From NCBI GenBank assembly GCA_001750645.1, contig MEIF01000005.1, positions 11,776 to 75,775 of the forward strand: a stretch of 64,000 nucleotides of DNA, given 5' to 3'. This document shows, piece after piece, positions 4,317 to 31,929 of this stretch. This stretch comes from Gammaproteobacteria bacterium AqS3 (GTDB lineage: Bacteria; Pseudomonadota; Gammaproteobacteria; MEIF01; AqS3). Position numbers and translations under genes: made by a program. Positions within the stretch are counted from its first letter, which is position 1; every line of letters begins with the position of its first letter. Under the pieces are notes generated by a model. It saw only the letters and a list, made by a program, of their open reading frames with translations, was not told the origin of the DNA and did no database searches.

Positions 4317-4498
4317 CTTCTCCTCCCCTGACGAAACGGGCAAGTCATTGCTCTATATGAACGGGGGCATCTTACCCCAGCCGTGTCTATGGCGTGAGGC
4401 GGGCAAGCCGGCGGTCATCTGACCGTGCCCTCCTAGCTTTTTGCTCGCCTACTTGCGACACCACTTCCCTTGACAAGGAATAGACGAGCAACTCTTAT

Positions 4499-6580
4499 TC
4501 AATCAAACCTCTGGCGGTTTTTGTATAGATTGATGATCTCTGCCTCATCCTGATCCAGACCGCTTTCGTCAATCTGGCTGACCCGTCTGTTCAGTTCGTC
4601 AATGTCCCCAAAGGGTTTGATTGATTCTTTATTAATCTTTAGAATATTTTTTGAGCTGTAATCATCCATATCATGCACCGTCGTTTCTGATACAAAACAT
4701 CTGAGGAAGTCGAGCAATCCTTTATCTGTTTTTATCAATTCATCAACGTAATTTTTCACTGCTTCTTCTGATACCCATTTTTTCCATTGGTCAAGTAGAA
4801 ATAAGAAATTTTGTTTGCCTGCTAACGATCCGTTCTCTGCTGCATGTTTGATTTTTCTGACACACAGTTTATTCAATTCATCAATTTTATCTTTTGCAAA
4901 CAAAGGCTCCTCTTCCGGTTCCAATGGGCCCCATTCATGCTTTCTCATGTCTTGAATCAAAGCCAGCACCAACAGTACCAATAAAGAAACACTTTGTGAT
5001 GAATGAAAAATTTGGGTCAAAAAATTCATTCTTTTCTCTTTTTTAACTCTTTTCAGAATCTGATAGCCTAGACCCCATGCCTGTGTACCGATATCCTGTA
5101 AATCAAATGCTCCATGCTTATAATCTTTAACGTCTTCGGCTATATCAAAAACACTCAAAAATAAATTTTCGCGCTGCTGATCATTTAAGTTATCAAGATA
5201 ATCTGGCAATCGCCACAAAGCTAGACGCAGCTTATCTTCCTTCTGAAGTTTTTCTAGAATCTTAGCCAAGACCGATACGCTATCAGTTGCATTCAAAACA
5301 TCATTAAATCTTTTTTCCGAAAGAACTGTAGAAGGAACAGAGAGTGCAAAATATTTATCAAAAATATCTTCAGAACAAACCCTCAACTGCCGCCTCCATT
5401 CCTGCTGCTGATCCGAGGAATAATGAACATCAGAATCAAGCACCTTAACCTGGGGGAATAGCTGCTGAATTATCCCCCCAATAGCATCGGCCAAACCTTC
5501 AGGAGATTTCTTGATAATTTGCTCGTGAATTTGCCTGCGGGCATCCAGTTCTCGATTGTCATCGGTGACATATCGATTATCAACCGCAGTAAACACTTCT
5601 TTTTCACCAGTCATTGCCAAATAAACTTCCGGTGCAAAGACTCGAATGGCTTCTACACCCAGAAAATCAATTGGATTCACTTCCTCCTTGCCTATGATTT
5701 TCAAATCAAGCTGCAAACTGTTGATATAACGCCTTATGTCACGAATAGTCGGAAAAAGTTTTTTGAATCCGGAATGAAACAGATTACCCCGCCGTACATC
5801 ATCCCAAGTCTTCTTATCCAAACCCAAGAACGTTGCATTGATACCATCAAACAATATCTCGAATAAATCCTGCGACTCAGGTTTAGGTAGAGTGAAACTG
5901 ACTTGGATAATCTTCTTCATATACTCTTCGCCCTTAATTCCTTTTTCATTCATACGCTTACCCACCTTGCCCCTGTCATAAGCGAGAAGGAATATTGTGT
6001 TCGCAAAATTGGCGGTCATTTTGACCAGTTTGAATATCAGCTTGGTCTCTTGACTGTCCAAACGATCAATATCGTCAACAACGATGACTATTTGCTTGCC
6101 GATTTTCTTTAGAAGTGAATTAACCTCTTGTTTCTGCATTTCCAAAGGATCATCGCCACCGAGATCATGAAACCCTCCAAGTTTCCATTTAAGAAAGCCG
6201 AAAAAAGAAATTGTTATATCACTGTGTTTTAACAGCTTTAAAGAATAATTAATTATCTTTTTTATATGTTTTTTCCATTTCTTCCGTCCAGTTTGTTTTA
6301 GAGCATCAATGAGCGAGTTGAAAAGATCCTTGACAATCTCGTCTTGATTGGAAAAATTCCACGGATTGAACTCAATGATCAGAACATCATCTGCCTCTCG
6401 CAGGCCTTCAAGAACCAGGTTGATAAAGGATGTCTTGCCAGAACCCCATTCACCCTCAATGCCAATAACAAGACTTTCATCGCCCTGATATCGTTTTATC
6501 TCACCCGCAACCCCGCTCGCCAATGGATAACGGCGCAGCAGATCTTTGTCTTTCGTCAAGATGGGGTTATCTGGAATCAT
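4499..6580 (-). CDS. KAP-family P-loop NTPase
   Basis: 693 aa with Walker A GIEGEWGSGKTSF, Walker B-like VIVVDDIDRL, and FLLAYD further on. Size and layout are typical of KAP NTPases. GAGG lies 7 nt upstream of the ATG. The gene is very AT-rich relative to the backbone. Confidence 0.8.
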   Translation of the reverse strand: MIPDNPILTKDKDLLRRYPLASGVAGEIKRYQGDESLVIGIEGEWGSGKTSFINLVLEGLREADDVLIIEFNPWNFSNQDEIVKDLFNSLIDALKQTGRKKWKKHIKKIINYSLKLLKHSDITISFFGFLKWKLGGFHDLGGDDPLEMQKQEVNSLLKKIGKQIVIVVDDIDRLDSQETKLIFKLVKMTANFANTIFLLAYDRGKVGKRMNEKGIKGEEYMKKIIQVSFTLPKPESQDLFEILFDGINATFLGLDKKTWDDVRRGNLFHSGFKKLFPTIRDIRRYINSLQLDLKIIGKEEVNPIDFLGVEAIRVFAPEVYLAMTGEKEVFTAVDNRYVTDDNRELDARRQIHEQIIKKSPEGLADAIGGIIQQLFPQVKVLDSDVHYSSDQQQEWRRQLRVCSEDIFDKYFALSVPSTVLSEKRFNDVLNATDSVSVLAKILEKLQKEDKLRLALWRLPDYLDNLNDQQRENLFLSVFDIAEDVKDYKHGAFDLQDIGTQAWGLGYQILKRVKKEKRMNFLTQIFHSSQSVSLLVLLVLALIQDMRKHEWGPLEPEEEPLFAKDKIDELNKLCVRKIKHAAENGSLAGKQNFLFLLDQWKKWVSEEAVKNYVDELIKTDKGLLDFLRCFVSETTVHDMDDYSSKNILKINKESIKPFGDIDELNRRVSQIDESGLDQDEAEIINLYKNRQRFD

Positions 6581-6679
6581 GACCTAGCCTCATGGTCGGA
6601 ATGAGCTCTCATAGTTCACTGATTGAACCGCCAGCGTTCGCCTCAATTGCAATCTTCCGATCCTGTCGAAAGCGAAATC

Positions 6680-6769
6680 TGGCGGAGGGGGTGGGATTCG
6701 AACCCACGATGAGCTTGCACCCATGCCGGTTTTCAAGACCGGTGCATTCGACCACTCTGCCACCCCTCC
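6680..6769 (-). tRNA. tRNA-Ser (anticodon UGA)
   Basis: The reverse complement reads GGAGGGGTGGCAGAGTGGTCGAATGCACCGGTCTTGAAAACCGGCATGGGTGCAAGCTCATCGTGGGTTCGAATCCCACCCCCTCCGCCA. It has a 7-bp acceptor stem, anticodon loop CTTGAAA (UGA), the long variable arm of class II tRNAs, a GGTTCGAATCC T-loop and an encoded CCA. Confidence 0.9.
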
Positions 6770-6859
6770 GGCGGTGCGGATTTTATCCCAGTCAGCCAGT
6801 GAGATGACATAGGACTGGTATACAGTGCGACTGATTCGCTCAAGCACAGCTGTCGTCTA

Positions 6860-8992
6860 TTGCCACAGCCCGTTCAGGGGATGAGAATAGCCCCCGTTTG
6901 CACACCAAAACTGGATAGGCTTCCCTTGTTCAAATTCTTTGCCACTGTAGTTGGTTTCTTATTCGGAGGGGCACTCTGGATATGCGCCCCTGCTTCGCTA
7001 TCGCCCAACTTTCCGATCGAGGATGTGCATCTTGCATCCGCCGGCCTGATTGGAACGGCACTCACCGTCCTACTAACACTTTCGATTGTTCCCGCTCAAA
7101 GGGCAGCCGATCTTTTCTCATCAGCGGTGCTGAGACTGTATGCACGCGACGGCAAGTTGCTGGCGTTGTTTTTCTTGCTGTCGATATTGACCCTTTTCTC
7201 ACTAACCCTTTCCACTAGTCAAATCTTCAATATGGATGCTTCTTTTTCCCTAGCGATTCAACTAACTGTTCTCGGAGGAGCACTAGATGCTGTAAGGAGT
7301 TTCTACTTGAGAACCCTAGATCTGTTATCTCCAAAGACGGCAATGGATTTGGTTGTGAGGCATTGCTCTCACAGAATTATGCGCAACAAAAAACAAATTG
7401 ATTTCTTATCGAGAACCGCAAAGATTAGATATGTGTTCTCGGAAAATACAGGAGATTTGCTTTGGTCAAACTGGATTTCTCGCCTCAATTCATCACCAAA
7501 AAACGATATTGAATATTGGATAGATAATCTTGATGAATTTGCTCACAAATCAGTAGAACGATTCGATATCCAAGCGATAAAGCATATCGTAACTGCAATG
7601 TCCCAGATTGGAGTCATCTACGTTGAATCAAAAAAAGACGGCATCATCCTTATCCCCGACTCTCAACTTACAATAAAACCAAACACCGAGGTCAAAAAGA
7701 CACTAAAAGTGATTTATGGAAGTATAAAAAATATTTGCGAAGCAGCAATTGATCGACCTAATAAAGTTATAGCAGGTCATTGCATGGATGCATTGGGGGA
7801 GATGGCAAAAAATTTTATGTTTATCGCTCCCGATGAAAATAAAAAATCTGCCGACTTTGCGCATACTCCAATTTTTTATCTTAATGAATGTATAAAGTAC
7901 GCTGCAAATGCTGCCATGGAGGATACACTAATCGTCGCATCGAACAATCTAAGAGATATTCTGTTATGTATAGACAAAAATATTGATACCAAGCCTGCTC
8001 AAAGTACTGCTCTTAAGAGTCTTTTCTATATCGCGATAACATCGTATGGATGTTCTATGCATGTGGCAAGCATTATCGCAATTCAGGCCATTATTTATGC
8101 CGCAAAACATGATATGCAGGTTAATGGGTTTAGGAATGCATCTATTCTAAAAAGAGCTTTGCCCCATATCAAAGAATTGATGAAGTTGGAAATAAAAACC
8201 AATAGATACAGTTTTGTGGAAATTCCATTCCCAATTTATGACTCCGGTTATGGAGTGGATATCGAGTCAATACTCAATGATGTAAAAAACCAGATCATAC
8301 CCCTAGATGAACCTTCCCAAGAAGTTAATCCTTTCCTTGATTTCGAGCAGGCCTCGAAATTGCTCTCAAAGCACTTTATAGAAGTGTTTAAGGAAATTAA
8401 GTTTGGAGAATCTGATTTACTTTCTTTATCACTAAAATCTCTATTCACTTGTGCTGATACACACTGGCAACTTCTTAGTTCACCCTCTCAAGGAAGTGAC
8501 TGGCATCTATACACAATAAAGGACTGTTTAGAGAAACTCATCAAGGCTCCAACACTTTATTTTCGCGAAGGCTCTGCATTTGACAGTGGACAAGAAGGAA
8601 CTGCAGCAGATGAACTTGCAAAGCTAGGCCTTAAATTACTTACGCTAAAAAGGTGGGACTTGGCAATGGAGTGCGCCGAGATAATCGCAAGAATTCAAAA
8701 GGATTATCTAGAAACAGACAGCCCTGATTTTTCCCGTGCTGCATATTTAGATATTAGGCTCGAAATCCTAGCAAGAGGTGCTGAAGCATTTGCAACTGAA
8801 GATGCAGCTCAACAAATACGAAGCCTACTTTCAAAACACCAAAATCAGTCGGCGGAGTATCGTCGTTCTCTTGAAATACATATGGGACATCTTGATAACT
8901 TCTCAAATAGAATGCCTCATTGGGCAGATCCAGAGATGGCTGAGGGTTTGCTTGACCGGCTGATAAATCAAAATTCAGAAGACGAAACTTAA
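6860..8992 (+). CDS. Hypothetical large membrane protein (about four N-terminal TM helices plus a ~550-aa mostly helical soluble region)
   Basis: 710-aa uninterrupted ORF in AT-rich DNA, where long ORFs are unlikely by chance. The N-terminal hydrophobic helices are FFATVVGFLFGGALWI, GLIGTALTVLLTLSIV, LLALFFLLSILTLFSLTL and LAIQLTVLGGAL. I recognise no family. The start is uncertain (TTG 6860 or ATG 6881). Confidence 0.6.
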   Translation: MPQPVQGMRIAPVCTPKLDRLPLFKFFATVVGFLFGGALWICAPASLSPNFPIEDVHLASAGLIGTALTVLLTLSIVPAQRAADLFSSAVLRLYARDGKLLALFFLLSILTLFSLTLSTSQIFNMDASFSLAIQLTVLGGALDAVRSFYLRTLDLLSPKTAMDLVVRHCSHRIMRNKKQIDFLSRTAKIRYVFSENTGDLLWSNWISRLNSSPKNDIEYWIDNLDEFAHKSVERFDIQAIKHIVTAMSQIGVIYVESKKDGIILIPDSQLTIKPNTEVKKTLKVIYGSIKNICEAAIDRPNKVIAGHCMDALGEMAKNFMFIAPDENKKSADFAHTPIFYLNECIKYAANAAMEDTLIVASNNLRDILLCIDKNIDTKPAQSTALKSLFYIAITSYGCSMHVASIIAIQAIIYAAKHDMQVNGFRNASILKRALPHIKELMKLEIKTNRYSFVEIPFPIYDSGYGVDIESILNDVKNQIIPLDEPSQEVNPFLDFEQASKLLSKHFIEVFKEIKFGESDLLSLSLKSLFTCADTHWQLLSSPSQGSDWHLYTIKDCLEKLIKAPTLYFREGSAFDSGQEGTAADELAKLGLKLLTLKRWDLAMECAEIIARIQKDYLETDSPDFSRAAYLDIRLEILARGAEAFATEDAAQQIRSLLSKHQNQSAEYRRSLEIHMGHLDNFSNRMPHWADPEMAEGLLDRLINQNSEDET

Positions 8993-16233: not shown

Positions 16234-17172
16234 TCAGAAATCCGCGCGGCCGCCGCCCCGCTGGCGCTCGAGCTTCTCGGCACGGCGCTTCTCCTCAATG
16301 CACAGCGTCGCCGTCGGTCGAACCAGCAGACGCTCCAGACCGATCTCCTCGCCGGTGCGCACGCAGTAGCCAAAGGGCGAATCCCCCTGACCGCTGAGGC
16401 GGCGCAGAGCGTTGTCGATCTTCTGCAGCAGGTTGCTCTTGCGCTCGACCAGACGCGCCAGGATGCGGTGCTCCTCCTCGATCAGCGCCTGATCCAGCTC
16501 GTCGCTCTCATTGCTCCTGGCGCGCTTGAGCTCGATCTCGGCCTGCTCAATGTCGCGCAGCGATTCATCGCGCTCTTTTTCCAGCATGCTGCGGAAAAAA
16601 TTCTTCTGTGCCTGATTCATGTACTCGGAGGGATCAGACGCCAGCAACTGCTCCCGCGTTTTGATCACGCCATTCCTGGATCGGGCGCTCGGCTTTTTGG
16701 GGAGCGCTTTGCTGCCCTCGGTTTTTTTTTCAGCGGCTTTTTTGGCTGCCGGTTTTTTGTCGGCCGGCTGGGCCGATGCCGCCTTTTTGGACGGCGATGA
16801 TTCCACCGCCGATTTTGCCTCTGCGGGTTTCTTTGCGTCAGGTCTCTTGGCGGCGGGTTTTGCCGGTTTTTTTGCGATCCTCTCGACTTTTTTTGCAGTC
16901 GCCGATTTCGCCGACGGCCGCTTCGCTGCGGGCCTCTTTACCGCAGGTTTTTTGGCTGCGGGCCTTGCCGTTCTTTTTGCCTTCTCAACTTTTTTACCTT
17001 TGGCCTCCGCCACCCTGGCTGCGGAGGCAGCGGATGCCGACGACCGGGCGGAGGGCTGTTTTTCCGCTTTTTTTTCTGTCGATTGACGCTTATCAGGTGC
17101 GGCCTTTTTGGGCTGTCCGGAAGCCTTTTTCTCGGTGTCGCTCGCCCTTGAATCCGCTCTGTTTTTGGCCAT
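16234..17172 (-). CDS. DksA/TraR-family RNA-polymerase-binding regulator with a Lys/Ala/Pro-rich histone-H1-like N-terminal extension
   Basis: The C-terminal ~140 aa align by eye with DksA: SEYMNQAQKNFFRSML, coiled-coil tip DELDQA (DxxDxA), and FGYCVRTGEEIGLERLLVRPTATLCIEEK. Only two of the four zinc-finger Cys remain (CxxT...CxxE). The N-terminal ~165 aa are AKKPA/AKRPA-type repeats. Confidence 0.7.
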   Translation of the reverse strand: MAKNRADSRASDTEKKASGQPKKAAPDKRQSTEKKAEKQPSARSSASAASAARVAEAKGKKVEKAKRTARPAAKKPAVKRPAAKRPSAKSATAKKVERIAKKPAKPAAKRPDAKKPAEAKSAVESSPSKKAASAQPADKKPAAKKAAEKKTEGSKALPKKPSARSRNGVIKTREQLLASDPSEYMNQAQKNFFRSMLEKERDESLRDIEQAEIELKRARSNESDELDQALIEEEHRILARLVERKSNLLQKIDNALRRLSGQGDSPFGYCVRTGEEIGLERLLVRPTATLCIEEKRRAEKLERQRGGGRADF

Positions 17173-17240
17173 TTTTTCAGCCTCTGCAGCGGCCTGCTGC
17201 TGATTCGGGCGGCGATTATATACGTCTGCATCTGGCGGGG

Positions 17241-19667
17241 ATGCCGCAATACTGCCTAGATATAATCCCGCCCCAGCCGAGCCATAAAACGGGACTCGTG
17301 AACGATTTCGCTCACCTGCCCAAAGAGGTTCAAGACCTCGTCCAGATCGCTCTCAGGAGCGAAAAAACGGCGTCGCTCAGGGCCGCAATCAGCGGTATTG
17401 AGGACGAAACCGCGCTGCTGCACATCATCGAGGCGTGCAAGAACAAGGACAAGGCCGCCCACAACGCCGCCAAGCGCAAGCTGGAGGAGCTGCGCCAGCA
17501 GGCGGAACACGCCGCGCAGCAGGTTCGGGACGCCGAGGCGCTGTGCGCGGTGATGGAGCAGTGCAGCACAGACATTGACGCGCAGGAACGCGCGCATCTG
17601 CTGCTGCTCGCTCAGCAGTACCAGCAGCACCAGGCCGTCATGAGCCCCTCGCAGCAGGAGCGCGCCCAGGCAGCCCTGGCGGTCATCGAGCGGGCTCTGG
17701 AAGAGGACCCCGTCCGCCTGCACGCAGCCGCCCATGCGGAGGTCGTCACCGCCTGCGAAAAGCTCGTCCACCTTGATGCCATCAGCATTGAGGAAGTATT
17801 TGCGATCGATCCGCTGCTGCAAAAGGAGGCCAGGCTGCGCAGCGGTCTGAAATTCCGGCCCGAGCTCGCCCCCACCATGGCCGTCGTCAGCGTGCGCCAA
17901 GCGCTGTCGGCCGCGCGCAAGCTGAGGCAGCAGCTGGGCAATCTGGAGCAGCAGGAGGACGCCGGCGCACTCGAAGAGCTGCTCGAGGGCATCGACTGGC
18001 CCGCCGAGCTGGCGGTGCCCGAGGATCTGAACAAAGCACATGCCCGCCTGGACCGGCTGCGCCACCAGGATCGCAAGGCGCGCGAAGAGGAGCGCACCGC
18101 TCGGAACACGGCGCGCGCGCTGCTGCAAAGCGCCGGCGCTGCGCTGGAAAACGGTGATTTTCGTGCTGCCCGCAGCCACCTGAAGGAAATCGGCGAACAC
18201 ACTGAGATATTGAGACCCTACTGGGTCAGCAGCATTCACCGGGCGCGGGAGCGCATCAGCGCCGAGATTCGCCACCTTGAACGATGGCTCAACGATGTCG
18301 CCCAGCCCCAGAAGCTGGAAATCTGCGACGAGCTGCGCAGTCTCATTGACCAGCCGCTGGATGCGCGCCAGGCCAAGTCGGTATACGCGCGCATGAATGC
18401 CGTCACCGAGGCGCGCCGCCGCTGGAGCGAGATAGACGCCGGCCTGCTCTCAACCGATCAAAAACTCTGGAAGACATTCAATGAACTGTGCGAGGCGGCC
18501 AAAGCCCCGTGCAAGCCGTTTTATGAAAAGCGCGAGCAGCTGCAGCAGCAGAATGCCGGGCAGATGCAGAATATCGTCAAGGATCTGAAGAACGGACTGA
18601 AGCGGCCCCCGGAGGAGCTCAGCCGCCTGCTGCACGGGGTGGGGCAGCGCCTGGATCGCATCAAGCTGCTGCCCGGCAGCAAAAAAGAACGCGAGGGGCT
18701 GCGCAAGGGTGTCCAGCAGGCCGTGTCCGAGGCCGAGGCCGCCCTGGTGCCGCACTACGAGACTTGGCGCAACCGCAAGCGCCGCCTGATCGAGCGCACA
18801 CAGCTGCTGGCGCAGCGCAAGATCGACAAACCCAAAGATCGCATCGCCCAGCTGATGGAGCAGTGGAAGAAAATCCCGCAGCTGCCGCATGAGGAAAACG
18901 AAGCCCTGTGGAATGAGTTTCGCACTGCCTGCGACACCGTGTTTGAGGCTGACCGGAGCGCGCGCGGGCTGATGACCACGGCTGAGCTGCAGAAAAAATC
19001 CCAGGAGCTGCTGGACGAGCTGGAGCAGATTGGTCGCCTGGACGATGCGGCAATGCTGAATCAGGGCAACCGCATGGCCGATCTGGAGCAGCAGTTCGAA
19101 GAATTAAAACGTCCGCCGCGCGAGATTGCCCAGGCATTCCGCAAGCGTCTCAAAGAATTGAACGGCAGGCTGCGCAATCTGAACCGCAGCCAGAAGCGCG
19201 CTCACCTGGACAACGTCCGCAAGTACGCCGATGCCTGTGCTCAGGTCGAGAGCGCCGCCATGTCCTATGGCAAGGAGGCGGCGGAACTCGCCCCTCCGGA
19301 AATGCCCGATGTTCCCAAGCCCTGGCGCGAGCTGGTCGAAACCCGGTCACAGACCTGCAGTAAGCTGCTGGCGGCTCCGTCCGACTGCAACTTCGTCAAG
19401 CTGCTGTCCGAGCACCGCCGCCTGGTGATTGAGCTTGAGATTGCCGCCGAGGTCAGCACCCCGAAAAAGGATGCCGACATGCGCATGAAGATCAAGATGG
19501 AGCTGATGCAGAAGTCCCTGCAGACGCAGCAGTCCCAGCCGCGCAAGACTGCGACCTGGCTGAAGCGCTGGTGCGGTCTGCCCGCCGGCGTCCCCAACGA
19601 AGAGGGCGAAAAACAAATGACGCAGCTCATCAAGCGCTTTGACACCGCCCTGAAGGGGCTGGGCTGA
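17241..19667 (+). CDS. DUF349 repeat protein
   Basis: Repeated helical modules carry the DUF349 signature (LWKTFNELCEAAKAPCKPFYEKR; ALWNEFRTACDTVFEADR). The start is uncertain: ATG 17241, or GTG 17298 downstream of a TATAAT box. The track ORF start at 16776 is antisense to the DksA-like gene and is rejected. Confidence 0.7.
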   Translation: MPQYCLDIIPPQPSHKTGLVNDFAHLPKEVQDLVQIALRSEKTASLRAAISGIEDETALLHIIEACKNKDKAAHNAAKRKLEELRQQAEHAAQQVRDAEALCAVMEQCSTDIDAQERAHLLLLAQQYQQHQAVMSPSQQERAQAALAVIERALEEDPVRLHAAAHAEVVTACEKLVHLDAISIEEVFAIDPLLQKEARLRSGLKFRPELAPTMAVVSVRQALSAARKLRQQLGNLEQQEDAGALEELLEGIDWPAELAVPEDLNKAHARLDRLRHQDRKAREEERTARNTARALLQSAGAALENGDFRAARSHLKEIGEHTEILRPYWVSSIHRARERISAEIRHLERWLNDVAQPQKLEICDELRSLIDQPLDARQAKSVYARMNAVTEARRRWSEIDAGLLSTDQKLWKTFNELCEAAKAPCKPFYEKREQLQQQNAGQMQNIVKDLKNGLKRPPEELSRLLHGVGQRLDRIKLLPGSKKEREGLRKGVQQAVSEAEAALVPHYETWRNRKRRLIERTQLLAQRKIDKPKDRIAQLMEQWKKIPQLPHEENEALWNEFRTACDTVFEADRSARGLMTTAELQKKSQELLDELEQIGRLDDAAMLNQGNRMADLEQQFEELKRPPREIAQAFRKRLKELNGRLRNLNRSQKRAHLDNVRKYADACAQVESAAMSYGKEAAELAPPEMPDVPKPWRELVETRSQTCSKLLAAPSDCNFVKLLSEHRRLVIELEIAAEVSTPKKDADMRMKIKMELMQKSLQTQQSQPRKTATWLKRWCGLPAGVPNEEGEKQMTQLIKRFDTALKGLG
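17261..17273 (+). promoter_or_regulatory. Putative -10 box with GC-rich discriminator (TATAATCCCGCCC)
   Basis: An exact TATAAT followed by CCCGCCC lies 25 nt upstream of the GTG 17298 candidate start of the DUF349 gene. The same 11-13-mer recurs at 24854-24866 (-) and 42907-42920 (+). Confidence 0.35.
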
Positions 19668-19930
19668 TTCGTCGGTTTTTGGGTCTCGCTCGGCGGGCGA
19701 GAGCGCAGTGTTTGGAAAACGCTGTCGTTTTATGCGGGCGGTTTGACCCTGTCCGAGCCTGGAGAGACTTAAGAATTCTGCACCGTCAGCCCACCTGAGC
19801 CACGTTGCGTCCCATCTACTCCAGGGATGCGAGAGAAATAATGCAGAGCCCGACGGTGGCTGACCAGAATAGGTCACATAAAGTCCTTTCTGATCTCTCG
19901 AATATCATCTTTGATCTCTGTTTTTTGGGA

Positions 19931-20949: not shown

Positions 20950-23900
20950 CTAGTCGATGTAGTGCTGCAGCGAAACATGCCAGCGCTGGCTGCCCCACAT
21001 GCGGTAGGACGGATCAAAGTCATTGGCGTATGCTTCGGGGAAGTAAGGTGGATCTTGATCCAATAGGTTTTCAACACCAAAAAGGAAAGTCGTATTAATT
21101 CGATCCCAGTTATAACGCACATTGGTATCCCAGTAGTAGGTCGCATCTAGAAGCCGATCATCATTTGGGTCACCACCTCTAATACCGTTAGCCCCCAGAA
21201 ACAGCACGGAGTGAATGTAGTTGAACTCATTAACCCAACTCCAGAGGCCGTCCTCACTTTCAAAGCGCGTGTATAAGCGTCCCTTCACACGAGGATTTGA
21301 AGATCTACTCGCTCCATTAATTAATCCAGTAAAAGATACAGAATTACCGGAGCCGGTGACAGAGGAAATGTTTTCAACGTAAGTAGCATCACCAGAAATA
21401 CGCCATTGGTCATTGATGTCGTAGACAATAGCGATATCATAGCCATTGGTGTTAACTTCGGAAAAGTTAGTGTAAACATCAATGAGGTCAGAAACAGAAC
21501 CACTAGGCGAACGCTCAATCAAATTGCATAGTTCGGGAGAATAGAAAGCACCACCGGGTTTGTAGCATCTATCCAAAATGGCCTGCGGTCCGTATGTTCC
21601 AATTGCATCAGTAATCTTAATTTCCCAGAAATCAATTGTGATGAACATTGAGTCCGTAGGCTCAATGATTACGCCATAAGAAAAAGTTTCAGATTTTTCC
21701 GCCTGCAGATTACGATTGCCGCCTACCGTGATGCGGATTTGATCATTGCGCTGATCAAAACCCACCGGAACTGGGTTGTGATCCCTGTCCAAGATTTTGG
21801 CTGCAGCACATTGAGAAAAGTCGCCAGCAAGATTGTCATTAACATTACCGGCAACGGTGGCGGCACAAGGGTCAAACACTTCTGGGTATGAATCAGAAAA
21901 ACCTAAGTACTGCTCATTGATAGTCGGGGCACGAAAGCCGGACCCCTGTGTCACGCGAATCTTGAACATGTCATTGATTTCCCAGCCCACTGCAATTTTG
22001 TCAGTTGTGACTGTGCCAAAGGTGGAGAAATCTGAACTGCGAGCTGATATGGAAGCATCTAGCAATTGAACACCAGGGAGGCCGGCAACTATTGGAATCT
22101 TGGCTTCAACGTAATACTCGGTGACATCATAACCCCCGCTTGTGGGCAACCTCGCATTGCCCGAGGTAATGCCAGCAGCAATCAGTGCATCGGGCTGATC
22201 ATTGCCGTAGGTATCCCTCATCTCAAAACCGGCTGCGATGCCTAAAGGACCTGCCGGCAGATCAACAACGCTGCCAGCAACGTTTGCTGTGATCAATTTT
22301 TGGGTATTCGTGCCAGAATCCTGTGCAGTGAAGGAAATATAGTTCAGCATCTCATTAGTCATCGATCCTGAACCACCCCACAGACCATTGCCCAGATATT
22401 GAGCATTGGTGCCCTGACCACCGAAGATGTTGAGTGAATAACAACCTCCACTGCTGTCTGCGCATTTAATGTTGCCATTGTCATCCAAGACAAAACGATC
22501 TGTGGCCGCAATTGCATTGTTTCCGGTCAAGTTGTTCGCACTGTTGTAAGCGGTGGCTTCATCAGCAGTGACCTTATTGTCGTTATCTGTATCTGCGGCT
22601 TTCACACCACTCCATTCAGAATTCTCAGCACTGGGGCCAAGTGCCTGGGCAATACGGGCGGTATTGAACAAGCCCTCGGTACGAATGTATGCCTGCACTT
22701 GAGACCAAGACCAGTCAACATCATATTTCCATTCAAAAGTCCCGACATCAAAAGTTCCTTCTGCCCCAGCTTGAACATGAAATGTCTCAATATCCTGTAG
22801 GAAGTTACGTGGACCATACTCCAGCATGCGACGGCCAAACCAGCCGGTAGCGTATCCCGGCTTGGGAACATTATCATTCGAGTAGATCACATTCCCATCT
22901 TTATCCTTCTTGGCAACATCTTGGGCGATAAATTGCTGAAAGATATCAGTATTCTCAGCTATGGGGTTGGCGGAAACGGTAAAAGCTCGCCCCGTAGGAT
23001 CACTGGGATCAAGGGTAACTGCATAAAGCTTAATCGTCCCATCAGCTTCTCTTTGGGTCACGTATTTCACGACACCATCTTTGTCCAAATAACTGTCCGG
23101 ATAGCGAGAACATACAGTCGGGCTTTTATTTTTGCCGATAGGCTTTCCATTAGCAGCGCATTTGTCGTTGGCTGCAATCGGATACAAAGGAAGCTCCCGA
23201 TTACCGTTTCTATCCACTGCGTAGAGATAATTCACTTGCACATCTTCTTCTTCCCCAATGGTGAACTCGTCACCCTCCTTATAGAAATCGGGAACGGGCT
23301 TATGGACACCGTTGGCTGTGTAGTAATAGTGAGCTTTCTGCGTACAAGATTCTTTGCTGCCATACGACGAACTCCCGTAGAGATCACAGAATTCAATCCG
23401 CATGCTGTTAAAGGCATTGGATGCGCTGATCCCCTCGCCGCGATTGAATCCCCAGAACAGCGGTGTCGGTGCCAGCAACTGATCTGAACGCCTGTTTTGG
23501 TAGAGCATCTTGAAGGTGGCGGAGTGATTGTCATTAATCTCAAAATTGCCGCGCATGAATACCGAGCGACGTTCATTGGGGGTAATGACGTAGTTATATG
23601 GGTTGTAGTTAAACGCCCAGCCATTGGCACCCCCATGCCAAGATGTAAAGTCCTCCGCCCTAGTACCGCTCAGTGCATTTGGATTGTTGCCATCATCTCT
23701 CGGCGTGAAGCCAACAGCACCGGTGGCACCCCTGTTTTCAGGCGATAAGGGCAAATTTGCGAAATTACCATACTGAACCGTTACTAAGTTGCTGACATCT
23801 GCTGGATTAAAACTGCCGCTGCCGTTGAATTTGGCCAGATATTGAGCCCCGCCCCAAAGACCGGGTGTCTTGCCGTACTCCGTTCCAAGCGGATTGCTAT

Positions 23901-24735
23901 TCCGCTGCTTGATAAAGTCCGCACTCAAAAAATTGTCGTTATCAACATAGTTGGGATTATCAGCAAAATTTGGCCACGCCAAATTGCCATAAGCAAAGCG
24001 CCCCTGCGGAGTGCCTGAGGAACCGCCGCTAGAGGGGCGAACTGAAGTTTCTTCCCGCTCCCAGTTGCCAACAGCCAGTTTGTTGACCCAAGTCAAGCCA
24101 ACAGTAATGTTGCCGCGTTCGCCATCAATACCGAACAATGCCTCGACTTTCTTGCTCTCACCACCGCCTGCTTCAAATGCACCTTGCGAAACAGAGAACA
24201 GTGCTCCGTCAAAATTCTTCCGGGTGACAATATTTACCACAGCGGCGACAGCGTCTGCACCATAGATGGAGGAGGCTCCGTCCTTCAACACTTCAATCCT
24301 CTCCACAGCCCCAAGTGGAATGGTGTTGATATCAACAGTTCCGTCCGCCCCTTCGCCACCAGCTACCCAGCGACGACCATCAACCAATATCAATGTGCGT
24401 GCCGTCCCAAGATTGCGAAAATCAAGCCGGGTTGAGCCATCACCGCCATTGTTATAGGTTAGGTTGATAGCGGAGCCAGCACCGGGCAGTTCTTGAAGCA
24501 GTGCGCCGAGGTCAGTTAACCCCGAACGGGCAATCTCTTCCGCTGTGACGATCTGCACGGGCGATGTGCCATCTTTGGGTGTTGACACTGGAATTCGAGA
24601 GCCGACCACAACAATCTGCTCAATTTCTTCTTGCATTCCTGCATCATCGTCCTGTGCGACGACAGGCAGTGCCGCAAACCCCAGCAGCCCTGCCATCAGA
24701 ATGGAAACCCATCTCTGCAGTTGATCCAGTTTCAT
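20950..24735 (-). CDS. TonB-dependent outer-membrane receptor, unusually long (1261 aa)
   Basis: Signal peptide MKLDQLQRWVSILMAGLLGFAALPVVA and a TonB-box-like EQIVVVGSR. Plug-domain blocks are VQIVTAEEIARSGLTDLGALL, RNLGTARTLILVDGRR and ERIEVLKDGASSIYGADAVAAVVNI. A long beta-barrel region follows. GGGAGGG lies 6 nt upstream of ATG 24735. Confidence 0.9.
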   Translation of the reverse strand: MKLDQLQRWVSILMAGLLGFAALPVVAQDDDAGMQEEIEQIVVVGSRIPVSTPKDGTSPVQIVTAEEIARSGLTDLGALLQELPGAGSAINLTYNNGGDGSTRLDFRNLGTARTLILVDGRRWVAGGEGADGTVDINTIPLGAVERIEVLKDGASSIYGADAVAAVVNIVTRKNFDGALFSVSQGAFEAGGGESKKVEALFGIDGERGNITVGLTWVNKLAVGNWEREETSVRPSSGGSSGTPQGRFAYGNLAWPNFADNPNYVDNDNFLSADFIKQRNSNPLGTEYGKTPGLWGGAQYLAKFNGSGSFNPADVSNLVTVQYGNFANLPLSPENRGATGAVGFTPRDDGNNPNALSGTRAEDFTSWHGGANGWAFNYNPYNYVITPNERRSVFMRGNFEINDNHSATFKMLYQNRRSDQLLAPTPLFWGFNRGEGISASNAFNSMRIEFCDLYGSSSYGSKESCTQKAHYYYTANGVHKPVPDFYKEGDEFTIGEEEDVQVNYLYAVDRNGNRELPLYPIAANDKCAANGKPIGKNKSPTVCSRYPDSYLDKDGVVKYVTQREADGTIKLYAVTLDPSDPTGRAFTVSANPIAENTDIFQQFIAQDVAKKDKDGNVIYSNDNVPKPGYATGWFGRRMLEYGPRNFLQDIETFHVQAGAEGTFDVGTFEWKYDVDWSWSQVQAYIRTEGLFNTARIAQALGPSAENSEWSGVKAADTDNDNKVTADEATAYNSANNLTGNNAIAATDRFVLDDNGNIKCADSSGGCYSLNIFGGQGTNAQYLGNGLWGGSGSMTNEMLNYISFTAQDSGTNTQKLITANVAGSVVDLPAGPLGIAAGFEMRDTYGNDQPDALIAAGITSGNARLPTSGGYDVTEYYVEAKIPIVAGLPGVQLLDASISARSSDFSTFGTVTTDKIAVGWEINDMFKIRVTQGSGFRAPTINEQYLGFSDSYPEVFDPCAATVAGNVNDNLAGDFSQCAAAKILDRDHNPVPVGFDQRNDQIRITVGGNRNLQAEKSETFSYGVIIEPTDSMFITIDFWEIKITDAIGTYGPQAILDRCYKPGGAFYSPELCNLIERSPSGSVSDLIDVYTNFSEVNTNGYDIAIVYDINDQWRISGDATYVENISSVTGSGNSVSFTGLINGASRSSNPRVKGRLYTRFESEDGLWSWVNEFNYIHSVLFLGANGIRGGDPNDDRLLDATYYWDTNVRYNWDRINTTFLFGVENLLDQDPPYFPEAYANDFDPSYRMWGSQRWHVSLQHYID

Positions 24736-24832
24736 AGTTAACCCTCCCACTCCGCATATCCGTTGCCAGTGCGGATTGATGTACCCAATTGCCCAACTAT
24801 TTAGGCAAACTGCCGGCCTAGATTAATTTCCC

Positions 24833-25348
24833 TTGTTTTCTAGCTGGCGAAGCGGGCGGGATTATAGCCGAAAAGCAACCCGTATTTACGCAACTTGGTA
24901 TCGACTGAGCACATTTCGCACACCGCCATTCTCTTGTTTTGAGCGCCCGATTGAAGCCGGCTGCATGGATGTAAGGCAATGTGCCGGATCTGACCCCCCT
25001 TACACCCTGATTCGGCCCGTCAATCTGGAACCCTCTGCAGTGCATCTCCCCTATCCAGTCTCACTTGGAGCCACTGAAATCAGTGGGCAGGACGCTCTCA
25101 GGCAAGAGCTCAAAGAGAGCGTGAATGAGCTCAAGAGCTGGATCAGATGGGGTTTGGGAATCATCATTGTCGTATCAGGCGGGGCACTTGCCTTCTGCTG
25201 CTTTCTGTTCCAGGCCATGGTTGAACAGGTGCTGCGCATCACCGAAGACAGCCAGTCAGTCGAAGGAGCGGCGGGTCAACCGTCTGTCGTCCTGTCCCAA
25301 ACCAGTTTGACTCCGCCCTTCGATTCTTCTGAGCTGTCTCATTGGTGA
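24833..25348 (+). CDS. Hypothetical protein, possibly a shorter single-pass membrane protein (weak call)
   Basis: The C-terminal half has a coiled-coil-like stretch (DALRQELKESVNELKSWIRW) followed by one TM helix (GLGIIIVVSGGALAFCCFLF). The real start may be the internal GTG at 25040. Confidence 0.25.
   Translation: MFSSWRSGRDYSRKATRIYATWYRLSTFRTPPFSCFERPIEAGCMDVRQCAGSDPPYTLIRPVNLEPSAVHLPYPVSLGATEISGQDALRQELKESVNELKSWIRWGLGIIIVVSGGALAFCCFLFQAMVEQVLRITEDSQSVEGAAGQPSVVLSQTSLTPPFDSSELSHW
24854..24866 (-). promoter_or_regulatory. Putative -10 box with GC-rich discriminator (TATAATCCCGCCC) upstream of the TonB-dependent receptor
   Basis: The minus strand reads GGCTATAATCCCGCCCGC, 119 nt upstream of the receptor ATG. 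Confidence 0.35.
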
Positions 25349-25568: not shown

Positions 25569-28481
<2,913 letters not shown>

Positions 28482-28553: not shown

Positions 28554-28973
28554 TTACTGCTGCTGAGCCTTGGCCATGTCAGCGGAGAAATATTCGGTGA
28601 CATTGCACGCGCGCTCGTAGCTTCCCAAGACCCCTTTGAAGCCCGCTCGCATGGCTCTCTTTCTTCCGATGGCGTCGCCCATCAATTCAAAATCCGGAAC
28701 TTTGAATTCACAGCCATTGAGCAAGCTGATGAGACCGCCCCACTGAGGCGGTTTGTCAATATGCGCCAGTTCGTGGGCGATGACATGAAAGTAAAACCCG
28801 GGCTTCTTCCCGCCCTCGAACAGATCGGCATTGGCCTGCCAGATCTTCTGATAGATCTGCTCGGTGCGCTGCTTCACAGAGGACTTGGAGGGTTTGTAAG
28901 ATTCAGAAGCTGTGCTCACCCCAGAACCTAGCGCCAACAACAGAATGGTTGCAACGATTGTTCTGACCATCAT
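28554..28973 (-). CDS. Small exported HExxH protein, paralogue 1 (shortest copy)
   Basis: Signal peptide MMVRTIVATILLLALGSGVSTA. Shared blocks are KIWQANADLF, HVIAHELAH, CEFKVPDFELMGDAIGRKRAMRAGF and GSYERAC. The start is set at 28973 (GGGGGAGG upstream). The track ORF start at 29147 would overlap paralogue 2. Confidence 0.7.
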   Translation of the reverse strand: MMVRTIVATILLLALGSGVSTASESYKPSKSSVKQRTEQIYQKIWQANADLFEGGKKPGFYFHVIAHELAHIDKPPQWGGLISLLNGCEFKVPDFELMGDAIGRKRAMRAGFKGVLGSYERACNVTEYFSADMAKAQQQ

Positions 28974-29061
28974 TCGCCTCCCCCATCTCAAGCCGCTCAC
29001 TCTTTTGACGATGAGATGCCATCCATCACCCCGGAAGTTTGCCGCTTCCGGGACTTTCAGA

Positions 29062-29670
29062 TCATTTCCGCTGCACCCCGGCCATGTCGGCTTCGATAAA
29101 TTTTGTGAGTCCGCACTCTTGCTCATATCCCCCCCACCGAGCCTCAAAACCGGCCCGCATGATCATCTTTCTGGCCACGGTATCCGCTATCACTTCATAA
29201 GCCGGAACGTCGCAATCTGAGCCCGCCATGGGTCTTTCAAAATTTGGATCATCGGCAAGTTTCTTGCTGGTCAGAACATGCGCCAGCTCGTGGGCGATGA
29301 CAAAGGCACAGCTGCCCTCTGAGCGTTGGCAGGACTGTGCAAAGATCTTGAATGAATTCCTTCCCACTCTGTGGAGCCCTCCCAGATTCCCCTTCTTCTG
29401 GTGGGAAAAATACATCTTCGGTCTCTTCTTCTTGGCCTTGAACAGATCGGCATTGGCCGCCCAAACCTTGTCATAGACATCAAAAGCCATTTGCTTGACC
29501 TCTTCTTTGGAGAGTATTCGAGGCTCGGCGACGACGGCCTCGTCAATGTTCTCCATTGCCTCGCCGTCTTCCTGAGAGGCACCGGGCACAGCCGCCAGCC
29601 CCAGCAGAGCAGCCATCAGAATGACAGGCACTCTCCCCAAGTGCCCCGGCTTCATGTCAAAGTCAATCAT
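29062..29670 (-). CDS. Small exported HExxH protein, paralogue 2
   Basis: Signal peptide ...VILMAALLGLAAVPGA. Shared blocks are KVWAANADLF, CAFVIAHELAH, CDVPAYEVIADTVARKMIMRAGF and GGYEQEC. An alternative start is MKPGH at 29655. Confidence 0.75.
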   Translation of the reverse strand: MIDFDMKPGHLGRVPVILMAALLGLAAVPGASQEDGEAMENIDEAVVAEPRILSKEEVKQMAFDVYDKVWAANADLFKAKKKRPKMYFSHQKKGNLGGLHRVGRNSFKIFAQSCQRSEGSCAFVIAHELAHVLTSKKLADDPNFERPMAGSDCDVPAYEVIADTVARKMIMRAGFEARWGGYEQECGLTKFIEADMAGVQRK

Positions 29671-29697
29671 TTTTCCCCCGCTTGCTTGAAGGACTGT

Positions 29698-30357
29698 CTA
29701 TTCTGTCGATGCACTCGGCGGCGATGGCTGCGCACTCTCGGCCATCTTCTCTTGCTCGCCATCCGCCTCGGCCTGCTCGCTCATCTTCATCTTGGCTTTT
29801 TCCTCTTCGGTCTTTTTCTGAGCCTTGGCCCAGTCGGGCAGTGGATATTTGACCCCGCCGCAGCGATATTCATAAGTCCCGATGTGACCCTTAAAGCCGG
29901 CGCGCTCGGCCATCCTCCTGCCCACGGCATCGGCTCTGAGCTGATTGATCGGCACGCCGCACTCGGCCTTCTCCGGCTTGAGCTTGGGCTTGGGCTTGGG
30001 CGGGGCATCAAAGTTGGGGACAGCGCCGCGCGGATTGGCGCGTCTGTATTCAAGCAGGTGCGCCAGCTCGTGGGCGATGACGTGGGCGCACCATTCATGG
30101 CTGTGGCCGGGTTCACAGGCCGGGGCATAGATCTGGATCGAGGACCTGCGCACCCTGCCCGTGTTGTAGCCCTTGCGCTGATCTGACATTCTCAGCCCGG
30201 GCTTGCGCGCCTTTTCGCCAAACATATCAAGGTTGGCATTCCAGATTTTGTCCAGAAAGTCCTTGGCTTTTTCCTCTGTCGGATCGACATCCTGCTGCTG
30301 AGCCAGTCCCAAACTCGCCGAAAGCAACAGCAGCACCCAAAAGATCGCTCTATTCAT
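29698..30357 (-). CDS. Small exported HExxH protein, paralogue 3 (with KP-rich insert and acidic tail)
   Basis: Signal peptide MNRAIFWVLLLLSASLGLA. Shared blocks are KIWNANLDMF, CAHVIAHELAH, CGVPINQLRADAVGRRMAERAGF and GTYEYRC. The start is at 30357. The track ORF start at 30537 would overlap paralogue 4. Confidence 0.75.
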   Translation of the reverse strand: MNRAIFWVLLLLSASLGLAQQQDVDPTEEKAKDFLDKIWNANLDMFGEKARKPGLRMSDQRKGYNTGRVRRSSIQIYAPACEPGHSHEWCAHVIAHELAHLLEYRRANPRGAVPNFDAPPKPKPKLKPEKAECGVPINQLRADAVGRRMAERAGFKGHIGTYEYRCGGVKYPLPDWAKAQKKTEEEKAKMKMSEQAEADGEQEKMAESAQPSPPSASTE

Positions 30358-30482
30358 TCCTGCCTTTGCGTTCCCGCGCTCTCGGTGGGGCCGTATGTTA
30401 CGCACCGCCCGCAACCTCTGCAACTGAACCGAGAACGATCCGCCCTCTGTCTCCGGCATCGGGCGGCTTTGGACAGGCGAAA

Positions 30483-30986
30483 TCAGTTCGTCCAAGGCTC
30501 GATTGCATCGGAGGAGATGAAGTCCCTTATGCCGCACTGTTCCTCATAGGCGCCGAGGTGCGCTGCAAAGCCGGCTCGCACCGCCATCTCCCTGCCCATG
30601 ACATCGGCGAGCAGTTCGTAGACCGGAACTCTGCAGTCCGAGATCACGAATCTTCGGTCGGGGGTTTTGTAAATCCTGTTCAGGATGTGCGCCAGCTCGT
30701 GCGCGATGACGTGCGCACACCAGGCATCGCTCTGCCGGCAAACCCACTCGTGAATCTTGATCGAGTTGCGCTTGGTGCTACCGGCAATGCTGTGATCTTT
30801 TGTGCGGCTTACCCGCAGTTTGGGCTTGTCCCTGTCCTTGAACAGATGCGCATTGGCCCGCCAGATCTTCTCAAAAACCGCTCTGGCATTATGCTGTGCA
30901 GGATGCCCGCCCCGACCCGTGCATGCAGACAGCGACAGCAACAGCGAGAACAACAGCGGCAGCAGCAGGCCGGTCAGACGACTCAT
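30483..30986 (-). CDS. Small HExxH lipoprotein, paralogue 4
   Basis: MSRLTGLLLPLLFSLLLSLSAC carries a lipobox (LSAC). Shared blocks are KIWRANAHLF, CAHVIAHELAH, CRVPVYELLADVMGREMAVRAGF and GAYEEQC. GGAG lies 5 nt upstream of ATG 30986. Confidence 0.75.
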   Translation of the reverse strand: MSRLTGLLLPLLFSLLLSLSACTGRGGHPAQHNARAVFEKIWRANAHLFKDRDKPKLRVSRTKDHSIAGSTKRNSIKIHEWVCRQSDAWCAHVIAHELAHILNRIYKTPDRRFVISDCRVPVYELLADVMGREMAVRAGFAAHLGAYEEQCGIRDFISSDAIEPWTN

Positions 30987-31107
30987 TTGGCTCCATTTCG
31001 GATCGTCTGCGGCCTGCATCTTACGACCTGCCAAGTCGGCAAAAACGACTCAAGCGGGCTGCATATATATAGTTACAGGTAGATTCGATAATAATCAGGT
31101 GGTTTCC

Positions 31108-31929
31108 ATGGATATCGGGATGTTCACTGTCAATAACTCGGGGTTTTGCGTCGGGCTGGATCCGTCAACTGAGTTGCTCCGCAGCTGGGGGCTTGACGAA
31201 GATGTCAGGGGCTTGGAAGCCTTTGGCGAGATCGTCATCACGGCTCTGCAGCTGGCTCCGGCTCCGGTCAAGCTGCAGGCGGCGTTTTACGAGCAGCACG
31301 GCGCTCGGGGCATTGCCGAACTGCAGCGCATCATTCGGAACCTGTCGCAGTCCGGCTGCCCGGTCATCCTCGACGCCAAGCGGGGCGACATCGCCAGCAC
31401 CGCCGCTGCCTATGCGCGCGCCTGGATGGGGATGGACAGCACCAGCCCGGTTCATGGAATCACCGTGGTGCCGTGGCTCGGGCTGGACGCTCTGGCGCCC
31501 TTCTTTGAGCTGGCTCGCGGGGATCACGCCGTGGTCTTTGTCGTGGTGCGCTCGTCCAATCCGGACGGCGCTCCGCTGCAGCTGGCCAGGCAGGGCGGCG
31601 GGGAGAGCAATGCCGAATGGCTGTGCGATGCCATCGCCCAGATCAACCGCGACGGACTGTGCGCGGGAGCCGTGCTCGGGGCGACGCAGAGAAAGGAACT
31701 CGCCCCGCTGCTCGACCGGCTCAATGGTGCACCGGCGCTGACTCCGGGGGTCGGTGCGCAGGGGACGCGCATGGACGAGCTGGCACAGAGTGTGGGACAT
31801 CACTACTCATCCCTGATCGTCCCGATGTCGCGCCACTGGATGATGCACGGACCGGATCCGAAAAACCTGGCTCAGGCAACCCTCGACTTTCAGCGGCAGG
31901 ATGCCGCACTGCGCAGTTACCAGTCTTGA
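31108..31929 (+). CDS. pyrF: Orotidine-5'-phosphate decarboxylase, type 2
   Basis: FCVGLDPS...VKLQAAFYEQHG...VILDAKRGDIASTAAAYA blocks are typical of the long (type 2) PyrF. AGGTGG precedes ATG 31108. Confidence 0.85.
   Translation: MDIGMFTVNNSGFCVGLDPSTELLRSWGLDEDVRGLEAFGEIVITALQLAPAPVKLQAAFYEQHGARGIAELQRIIRNLSQSGCPVILDAKRGDIASTAAAYARAWMGMDSTSPVHGITVVPWLGLDALAPFFELARGDHAVVFVVVRSSNPDGAPLQLARQGGGESNAEWLCDAIAQINRDGLCAGAVLGATQRKELAPLLDRLNGAPALTPGVGAQGTRMDELAQSVGHHYSSLIVPMSRHWMMHGPDPKNLAQATLDFQRQDAALRSYQS

Follow-up and report, generated by a model that had tools for sequence, protein, structure and literature searches.

What are the four small genes that lie back to back on the minus strand between gcvP and pyrF in Gammaproteobacteria bacterium AqS3, each encoding a putative exported protein with an HELAH motif? 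The genes (copies 1–4, together the array) fall within a window of 64,000 nucleotides, which is the whole stretch of DNA that was analysed. An earlier reading of the letters of this window (the original prediction) proposed that they specify minimal zinc metallopeptidases of no family that could be named. Our preferred answer, to which we give a probability of about 60 per cent, is that the products of the four array genes, and of a fifth paralogue on another contig, are exported gluzincins (zinc metallopeptidases of minimal size), with diversified proteolysis in the envelope or outside the cell as the favoured role. Coordinates are collected in Table 1.

Table 1. Features of the array, its surroundings in the window, and the fifth paralogue. 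Arrows mark cleavage sites predicted by eye.
Feature	Position	Strand	Details
M48 peptidase	2153-3175	-	PF01435, 83 bits; directly downstream of the DUF898 gene
DUF898 membrane protein	3177-4343	-	332 bits
KAP-family P-loop NTPase	4499-6580		~40% GC
tRNA-Ser(tga)	6680-6769		flanked by the KAP NTPase and 710-aa genes
710-aa protein	6860-8992		~40% GC; no Pfam or NCBIfam match
TonB-dependent receptor	20950-24750	-	1266 aa; 49% GC, GC3 0.49; generic plug and barrel matches, no specific subfamily
75-aa gene between receptor and gcvP	25121-25348	+	no matches
gcvP	25569-28481	-	PF02347
Copy 1	28554..28973	-	139 aa; signal peptide ...GVSTA↓SE; HELAH 28761-28775; E-L-M-G-D 28674-28688
Copy 2	29062..29670	-	202 aa; signal peptide ...VPGA↓SQ; HELAH 29278-29292; E-V-I-A-D 29182-29196
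Copy 3	29698..30357	-	219 aa; signal peptide ...LGLA↓QQ; HELAH 30058-30072; Q-L-R-A-D 29929-29943
Copy 4	30483..30986	-	167-aa predicted lipoprotein precursor; mature domain 146 aa; lipobox LSA↓C, residues 19-22
Copy 4 motifs		-	HELAH 30687-30701; E-L-L-A-D 30603-30617; G-A-Y-E-E-Q-C 30534-30554
Intergenic region, copy 4/pyrF	30987..31119	.	divergent, AT-rich, 133 bp; probable array promoter region
pyrF	31120-31929	+	PF00215
Copy 5	contig JADHEJ010000076.1, L082:240-968	+	242-aa open reading frame; public call P0010, 154 aa

Four co-directional open reading frames (ORFs) occupy the minus strand at 28554-29147, 29062-29670, 29698-30537, and 30483-31034. We took as the start of each gene the first start codon that follows a purine-rich Shine–Dalgarno-like run and precedes the signal peptide. 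Such runs precede the likely ATG starts at 28973, 29670, 30357, and 30986 (copies 1–4), and the public gene calls on the source contig are concordant (138, 202, 219, and 167 amino acids). With gcvP and the divergently transcribed pyrF identified on either side by their Pfam matches, the layout given in the original prediction stands. The array is also AT-richer than its neighbours, as had been judged by eye: GC is 0.53–0.59 against 0.65–0.67 for gcvP and pyrF, and GC at third codon positions (GC3) is 0.64–0.74 against 0.78–0.89. In every one of the four reading frames the codon positions rank GC3 > GC1 > GC2. A lack of orthologues combined with poor coding statistics had been named beforehand as grounds for discarding the gene calls; no orthologues were found in the collections searched, but the frame-specific GC pattern speaks for real genes.

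Pairwise BLASTP among copies 1–4 gave 29–45 per cent identity (E 1e-16 to 1e-36). The closest pair, copies 2 and 4 (45 per cent), is not adjacent, and for this reason we consider the duplications old. A MAFFT alignment of the four full-length copies, signal peptides included, contains 31 invariant columns, which fall in K.W.AN...F, VIAHELAH, VP, D...R....RAGF, and G.YE..C. These columns cover the ordered blocks that had been described for the family, with two amendments: copy 1 lacks the Met of 'RxM', and the spacing C-xxx-VP occurs in copy 1 only, the other three having C-x-VP. Synonymous sites are saturated at this divergence, and we used codon variation at invariant residues as the measure of constraint. 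Downstream of the signal peptides, 26 invariant columns hold an amino acid for which several codons exist, and at 18 of these the copies differ in the codon used; it is thus selection on the protein, and not recent gene conversion, that has preserved the motifs. The four array genes are real, mutually related, and constrained at the protein level, and the view of the expansion as old and maintained holds.

The array products all start with an n-region that is short and basic, followed by a hydrophobic core of 12–15 residues and a small-x-small site, and copy 4 has a canonical lipobox followed by Thr, in agreement with the original prediction (all read by eye). The mature proteins contain two Cys in copy 1 and four in each of copies 2, 3, and 4, to which copy 4 adds its putatively lipid-modified Cys; such even counts are what disulfide-bonded exported proteins would show. 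An upstream Cys pair had been assigned to copies 2–4, and it is present there, but with the spacing C-x6-C in copies 2 and 4 and C-x8-C in copy 3 instead of the C-x7-C originally given. We take the organism to be diderm because a TonB-dependent receptor, unusually long at 1266 amino acids, is encoded nearby.

The HELAH motif is invariant in five of five paralogues, including copy 5 (31–38 per cent identical). Downstream of it, after a spacer of 23–38 residues from HELAH to the predicted ligand Glu, copies 1, 2, 4, and 5 carry E-x-x-(A/G)-D, and copy 3 has Q-x-x-A-D. Using hhalign, we compared a profile of the family with two PF01435 proteins and obtained probabilities of 95.5 and 94, with HELAH and the second helix aligned and 'vP..EL.AD.vGRrmA.RAGF' of the family paired with 'GPDKELEADALGLMLMHRAGY'. 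Against one SprT protein the probability was 95, and here the N-terminal helix-sheet half and 'SHVIAHELAHIL' aligned. The family thus does relate to M48 and SprT, to which the original prediction had not been able to match the block pattern; copy 4 also scores 23.3 bits with the SprT-like Pfam model, whose cut-off is 25.6 (see below).

These alignments point to a metal site. In BepA the zinc ligands are H136, H140, and E201 (bioRxiv 10.1101/2020.07.30.230011), and the motifs proposed for MecR1 are HE205LSH and E245KVCD (PMC6925264). An HExxH motif paired with a downstream E-x-x-x-D is the metal-site signature of gluzincins, and by its sequence the array family carries this signature. By analogy, we infer that the Glu at i-4 from the invariant Asp is a zinc ligand and that the Asp supports a His. 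The earlier guess at the third ligand, either the Asp of the '(A/G)D' motif or a nearby Glu, was essentially right and fits the E-x-x-x-D helix of gluzincins.

An AlphaFold2 model of mature copy 4, built on the five-sequence alignment, has a predicted local distance difference test (pLDDT) of 81.9 and a predicted TM-score (pTM) of 0.81. It consists of a helix (8–28) bearing the K-I-W-x-A-N block, three strands (35–39, 48–51, and 54–58) followed by a short helix (59–64), a helix (66–85) bearing H75-E76-L-A-H79, a helix (101–116) bearing E103-L-L-A-D107...R111...R116, and a short helix (125–129) bearing Y126-E127. As modelled, this order of elements is the minimal zincin topology. Searching the PDB with Foldseek, we found the minigluzincins at the top of the list (proabylysin 4JIU, projannalysin 4JIX, and selecase 4QHI/4QHG; probability 0.98–1.0, E 0.05–0.2, target-normalised TM-score (TMt) ~0.5), followed by IrrE/PprI-like proteins, BepA (M48), an M61 aminopeptidase, vibriolysin/protealysin, and LTA4H/ERAP, all of which are gluzincins. 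In BFVD the matches were phage M48, SprT-like, and IrrE-like proteins (query-normalised TM-score (TMq) ~0.5, E ~2e-3 to 1e-1). The structural check that had been proposed for the family therefore returned a zincin fold. Together with the invariant HExxH, this supports the proposal of minimal zinc metallopeptidases for the family at large; copy 1, discussed below, is unlikely to be active.

None of the Pfam, NCBIfam, PHROG, or PADLOC models matched an array protein above threshold, and the Pfam scan suggested with the original prediction left its claim of novelty in place. The weak Pfam matches (SprT-like, M48, M78, and YgjP-like) are all to families of small HExxH metallopeptidases. Copy 4 alone, as the query in a word-indexed search of 5.8 billion proteins, matched only itself. 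A four-sequence family profile run against the same collection returned only copies 1–4 at E <= 0.001, the next best being two SprT proteins (E 0.5) and three M48 proteins (E 5–8). An exhaustive hmmsearch of 1.84 billion representatives at 50 per cent identity made one addition, P0010 (E 2e-8), which lies on another contig of the array's own assembly (GCA_015278115.1). Pattern and tblastn scans of GTDB species genomes, JGI metagenomes, and IMG/VR found no relatives, nor did tblastn against plasmids (PLSDB); in phmmer and profile searches of PDB sequences the only matches were to the HExxH motif, in M1 aminopeptidases and designed proteins.

The start of P0010 was called too late. With the longer ORF, copy 5 gains the K-V-W block at its start (FQKVWDAVGHEF), preceded by a signal peptide (…GGPGHA↓ETR), and becomes a full fifth paralogue; it has extra Cys and a Cys-rich insert in the sheet region. 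Its C-terminal tail has 49 per cent GC compared with 63 per cent in its core and looks foreign. Beside copy 5 lie fragments of a DNA methyltransferase, with the motifs DPPYN and DPFLGS in separate ORFs (L082:1100-1773, minus strand), and farther away are two SocA_Panacea genes.

How far the family is an orphan depends on how well its host is represented. In the same collection of 5.8 billion proteins the nearest homologue of PyrF is 57 per cent identical and the next, from a Parvularculales metagenome-assembled genome, 48 per cent; relatives of gcvP in GTDB species representatives are ~50–56 per cent identical among the matches listed. The two nearest PyrF homologues sit in unrelated gene contexts, without synteny to the gcvP–pyrF array. 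To judge from these sequences, the host lineage is very poorly sampled. Because PyrF itself has no relative above 57 per cent, the orphan claim is weakened: the array family is a sequence orphan known from one genome, but this partly reflects the lack of sister genomes.

The copies differ in completeness. In the alignment copy 1 lacks ~36–40 residues, close to the gap of ~35 originally noted, and these residues form the three-stranded β-sheet; the upstream Cys pair is missing as well. Its AlphaFold2 model (pLDDT 66.8, pTM 0.58) has no β-sheet. In zincins the edge strand of the sheet binds substrate, and because this sheet is missing from the model copy 1 is probably an inactive derivative. Copy 3 has the KPKPKLKP insert and acidic tail that had been reported for it; the alignment places the insert between the two active-site helices, and the tail is of low complexity. 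The change from Glu to Gln may impair its activity. Copies 2 and 4 look complete.

Several of these results count against reading the family as exported metallopeptidases, and we gather them here. Copy 1 has lost the β-sheet, and in copy 3 a Gln stands where the third ligand is predicted. The signal peptides of copies 1–4 were read by eye. The five sequences behind the copy 4 model all come from one genome, and the Foldseek E-values are weak (0.05–0.2 in the PDB and about 2e-3 in BFVD, with TM-scores of 0.4–0.55). All database similarities of the array proteins are below curated thresholds, and the collections searched hold no orthologues outside the host genome.

If the preferred reading is right, the proteins would work as follows. 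Given the motifs that each carries, Sec would transport all five, signal peptidase I would cut copies 1–3 and 5, and copy 4 would be lipid-anchored through its lipobox Cys. The conserved and even number of Cys suggests that a pair of disulfides, formed in the oxidising periplasm, would lock a core of ~125 residues. In mature copy 4 numbering, C62–C69 would bracket the turn into the active-site helix, and C97–C130 would join the C-terminal G-x-Y-E-x-x-C segment to the loop that precedes the second helix. The predicted fold runs from the N-terminal helix through the three-stranded β-sheet to the active-site helix and then to a 'glutamate helix'. From the alignment with M48/M56-type gluzincins, zinc would sit on H75 and H79 of HELAH and on E103 in the helix with E-x-x-A-D. 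H75 would have D107 as its support, E76 would act as general base on the zinc-bound water, and the backbone of the substrate would be bound at the edge β-strand. As for the role, we favour diversified proteolysis, with proteins or peptides of the envelope or from outside the cell as substrates, in nutrient acquisition or interactions between organisms, over housekeeping, because the family is restricted to one lineage, has diversified in tandem, and has a lower GC content than the housekeeping genes beside it.

The same enzymes could instead be housekeeping proteases of quality control, periplasmic or anchored in the outer membrane. In E. coli, YcaL, LoiP, and BepA degrade stalled intermediates of outer-membrane-protein assembly. 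The array family resembles this set in pairing a predicted lipoprotein (copy 4) with soluble exported copies, its C-terminal half aligns to M48, and BepA is among its structural matches; YcaL and LoiP, as outer-membrane-lipoprotein M48 proteases, provide the precedent, with BepA as the soluble counterpart (bioRxiv 10.1101/2020.07.30.230011). Such M48 proteases are widely conserved, however, whereas the array family is found in one genome. The active-site plug H-P-x4-R is conserved throughout PF01435 (bioRxiv 10.1101/2020.07.30.230011), but none of the five family sequences has an 'HP' downstream of RAGF. The window also has a regular M48 gene already, which aligns with the family at the HExxH motif only, and neither tandem diversification nor reduced GC suggests a core function. 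We disfavour quality control and judge it unlikely.

A second possibility is that the proteins keep the zincin scaffold without being proteases and serve as binding proteins or pseudoenzymes (decoys, inhibitors, or adaptors). The loss of the β-sheet in copy 1 and the Gln in copy 3 would both suit such a role. In minigluzincin zymogens, C-terminal segments occupy the cleft, and by analogy the invariant G-x-Y-E-x-x-C segment could fill it here. Against this, HELAH is invariant in all five paralogues at ~30–45 per cent overall identity while its codons vary synonymously, a pattern that points to the catalytic motif itself as the target of selection, and E-x-x-x-D is intact in four of the five. 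We think it quite improbable that the family as a whole has given up catalysis.

A TonB-dependent receptor lies on the side of gcvP opposite the array, and copy 2 resembles it at the N-terminus. A tblastn search within the window aligned copy 2 (29520-29661, minus strand) to the 5' end of the receptor gene (24592-24741, minus strand) with 46 per cent identity over 50 collinear residues from the initiator region, which in copy 2 take in the signal peptide and ~20 mature residues. For the whole N-terminus the Smith–Waterman score of copy 2 against the receptor was 82, compared with 23.4±4.7 for shuffled sequences (0/5000 shuffles). Most of this similarity is in the signal peptide, which alone scored 53 against 19.9±4.1 (0/5000 shuffles). 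The mature part alone, SQEDGEAM-ENIDEAVVAEPRI in copy 2 and AQDDDAGMQEEIEQIVVVGSRI in the receptor, was marginal, scoring 32 against 19.0±3.8 (33/5000 shuffles). The counterpart in copy 2 of the receptor segment IEQIVVVGSRI, which we take to be the putative TonB-box region from its likeness to the TonB boxes of receptors, is IDEAVVAEPRI. No other copy has a comparable match to the receptor, copy 3 being weak (5/2000 shuffles).

Colicins and pyocins use N-terminal TonB boxes, and copy 2 might likewise bear a TonB-box-like N-terminal tag for import into competitors through a TonB-dependent receptor or for interaction with the producer's own TonB machinery. That precedent is well established and the collinearity is clear, but the similarity is concentrated in the signal peptide and is clear in only one of five copies. 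Colicin-like toxins do not usually carry a Sec signal peptide, neither an immunity gene nor a lysis gene is evident, and the data are accounted for if copy 2 simply took its export signal from the 5' end of a receptor gene. On these sequence comparisons such capture is the simplest reading of copy 2; a working TonB-box tag is conceivable, though the support for it is weak, and a bacteriocin-like or TonB-interacting family seems very improbable to us.

Weak Pfam and PADLOC matches to SprT-like, M78, and capP models might point to cytoplasmic zincins of regulation or repair, either DNA-protein-crosslink proteases of the SprT/Wss1 type or repressor-cleaving proteases of the ImmA/IrrE/CapP type. 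Every one of these matches is below threshold, however, and all five proteins have an N-terminal signal peptide. A conserved third His after HELAH is absent from the five paralogues (a His at +3 in copy 5 is the lone case), as is the Cys4 zinc ribbon (CxxC...CxxC) of bacterial SprT, the family having two downstream Cys only. No helix-turn-helix (HTH) repressor, CBASS, or other partner gene is adjacent, the neighbours being gcvP and pyrF, and we give this explanation scarcely any credence. Finally, low GC relative to the neighbours, the absence of homologues outside the genome, and the internal truncation of copy 1 could suggest spurious ORFs or pseudogenes decaying in an AT-richer spacer, but the frame-specific GC pattern, the motifs conserved among five paralogues, the synonymous codon differences at invariant residues, intact signal peptides with Shine–Dalgarno-like sequences, and a confident fold prediction lead us to dismiss the idea almost entirely.

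The flanks of the array contain no direct repeats or integrase, and we did not find island boundaries; the sole DNA repeats at the array are the conserved coding blocks. Intergenic hairpins scored no better than shuffles and had no U-tracts, and none stood out as a terminator. A scan of the minus strand for sigma-70 consensus promoters gave no match, including in the gap between copy 4 and pyrF, and Rfam reported no riboswitch or other RNA near the array.

Elsewhere in the window, the M48 gene and the DUF898 gene beside it have 52–54 per cent GC, below the window norm. Descent of the array from this M48 gene is not supported: the HExxH motif alone aligns (hhalign probability 48). The region 4499-8992 looks like a horizontally acquired island, possibly related to defence. 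The host genome has ~65 per cent GC and is compositionally mosaic. ARAGORN called a tRNA-Ser(gga) at 19682-19761 (plus strand) on which the Rfam tRNA model was silent at its gathering threshold, reporting only 6683-6769. Close by, at 16776-19667 (plus strand), is a gene for a 963-amino-acid protein whose sole family match is to DUF349 repeats.

The M48/M56 catalytic core sits in membrane proteases that are hard to study (HtpX, Ste24, Oma1, and BlaR1/MecR1), and archaeal minigluzincins have been sought as soluble models of it. If active, the exported metallopeptidases that we propose would be very small relatives of this core, soluble and stabilised by disulfides. An active exported bacterial version with a native Glu ligand would be a closer model than these. 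The family was also missed by family databases and by 15 billion public proteins, yet it could be assigned by fold and motif; its importance in practice stays limited as long as neither a substrate nor a phenotype has been found. A bolder form of the proposal, which is tentative and on balance doubtful, makes the proteins a new family at the MEROPS level and the first bacterial, Sec-exported, disulfide-locked 'minigluzincins', whose ~125 residues would be among the smallest secreted metalloprotease cores. Their tandem diversification would then serve nutrient capture or conflict, and copy 2, having acquired the signal peptide and TonB-box region of the neighbouring TonB-dependent receptor, would couple a protease to TonB-dependent traffic.

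Comparison with named systems places the family more closely. The SprT-like family gives the best Pfam match (PF10263; copy 4 23.3 bits, E 6e-5; copy 3 14.1; copy 2 12.3; copy 1 no match; cut-off 25.6), and SprT proteins are also the nearest non-family proteins in the search of 5.8 billion, though NCBIfam SprT models scored 12–18 bits against a cut-off of 175. An N-terminal helix, three strands, and an 'hVIAHELAHi' active-site helix are common to both. SprT is cytoplasmic, however, while the array family is exported and has an M48-like C-terminal half. ImmA/IrrE (M78) and CapP are, like the array proteins, small HExxH zincins with a downstream helix of the E-x-x-A-(N/D) type. The M78 model (PF06114) scored 14.8 bits against a cut-off of 22, and PADLOC capP matched copy 2 at E 1e-5. 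These proteins are cytoplasmic and have an HTH repressor or a defence operon as their partner, in contrast to an array whose neighbours are its own paralogues, gcvP, and pyrF.

Minigluzincins, soluble minimal gluzincin scaffolds of ~100 residues related to M48/M56, are the best structural matches of copy 4. They are archaeal, cytoplasmic proteins that are not known to have signal peptides or conserved disulfides. The copy 4 model reproduces their arrangement of helix, three-stranded sheet, active-site helix, and ligand helix (E 0.05–0.2, TM 0.4–0.53), but a hidden Markov model search against the PDB detected no sequence similarity between the two families. Their third zinc ligand is His (PMC6925264), whereas helix 101–116 of copy 4 (VYELLADVMGREMAVR) contains no His and the family has E or Q at this position.

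With M48/M56 the array family shares an HExxH helix, E-x-x-A-D on the next helix, and then G....(R)AG(Y/F), and E. coli M48 proteases come in exported and lipoprotein forms, as the array proteins appear to. HExxH and a Glu on the next helix, the putative ligand, align to the M48 motif in hhalign. The best PF01435 score was 12.3 bits against a cut-off of 20.3, confined to the HExxH region, and no NCBIfam M48 model matched. The array core of ~125 residues is much smaller than M48, has four conserved Cys, and is without transmembrane helices, TPR, or PDZ domains; the spacer from HExxH to Glu is 60 residues in BepA (H140 to E201) compared with 23–38 here. Judged by sequence, the family is thus outside every named family but within the general definition of gluzincins (clan MA(E)), and we therefore propose it as a new family within clan MA. 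The claim of novelty stands to this extent: no named family matches, but the clan is known and this is not a new kind of protein. The array proteins appear closest to the M48/M56 catalytic core and the minigluzincins, with an N-terminal half like that of SprT, and we expect them to work like a minimal M48/M56-type gluzincin that is not itself a member of M48.

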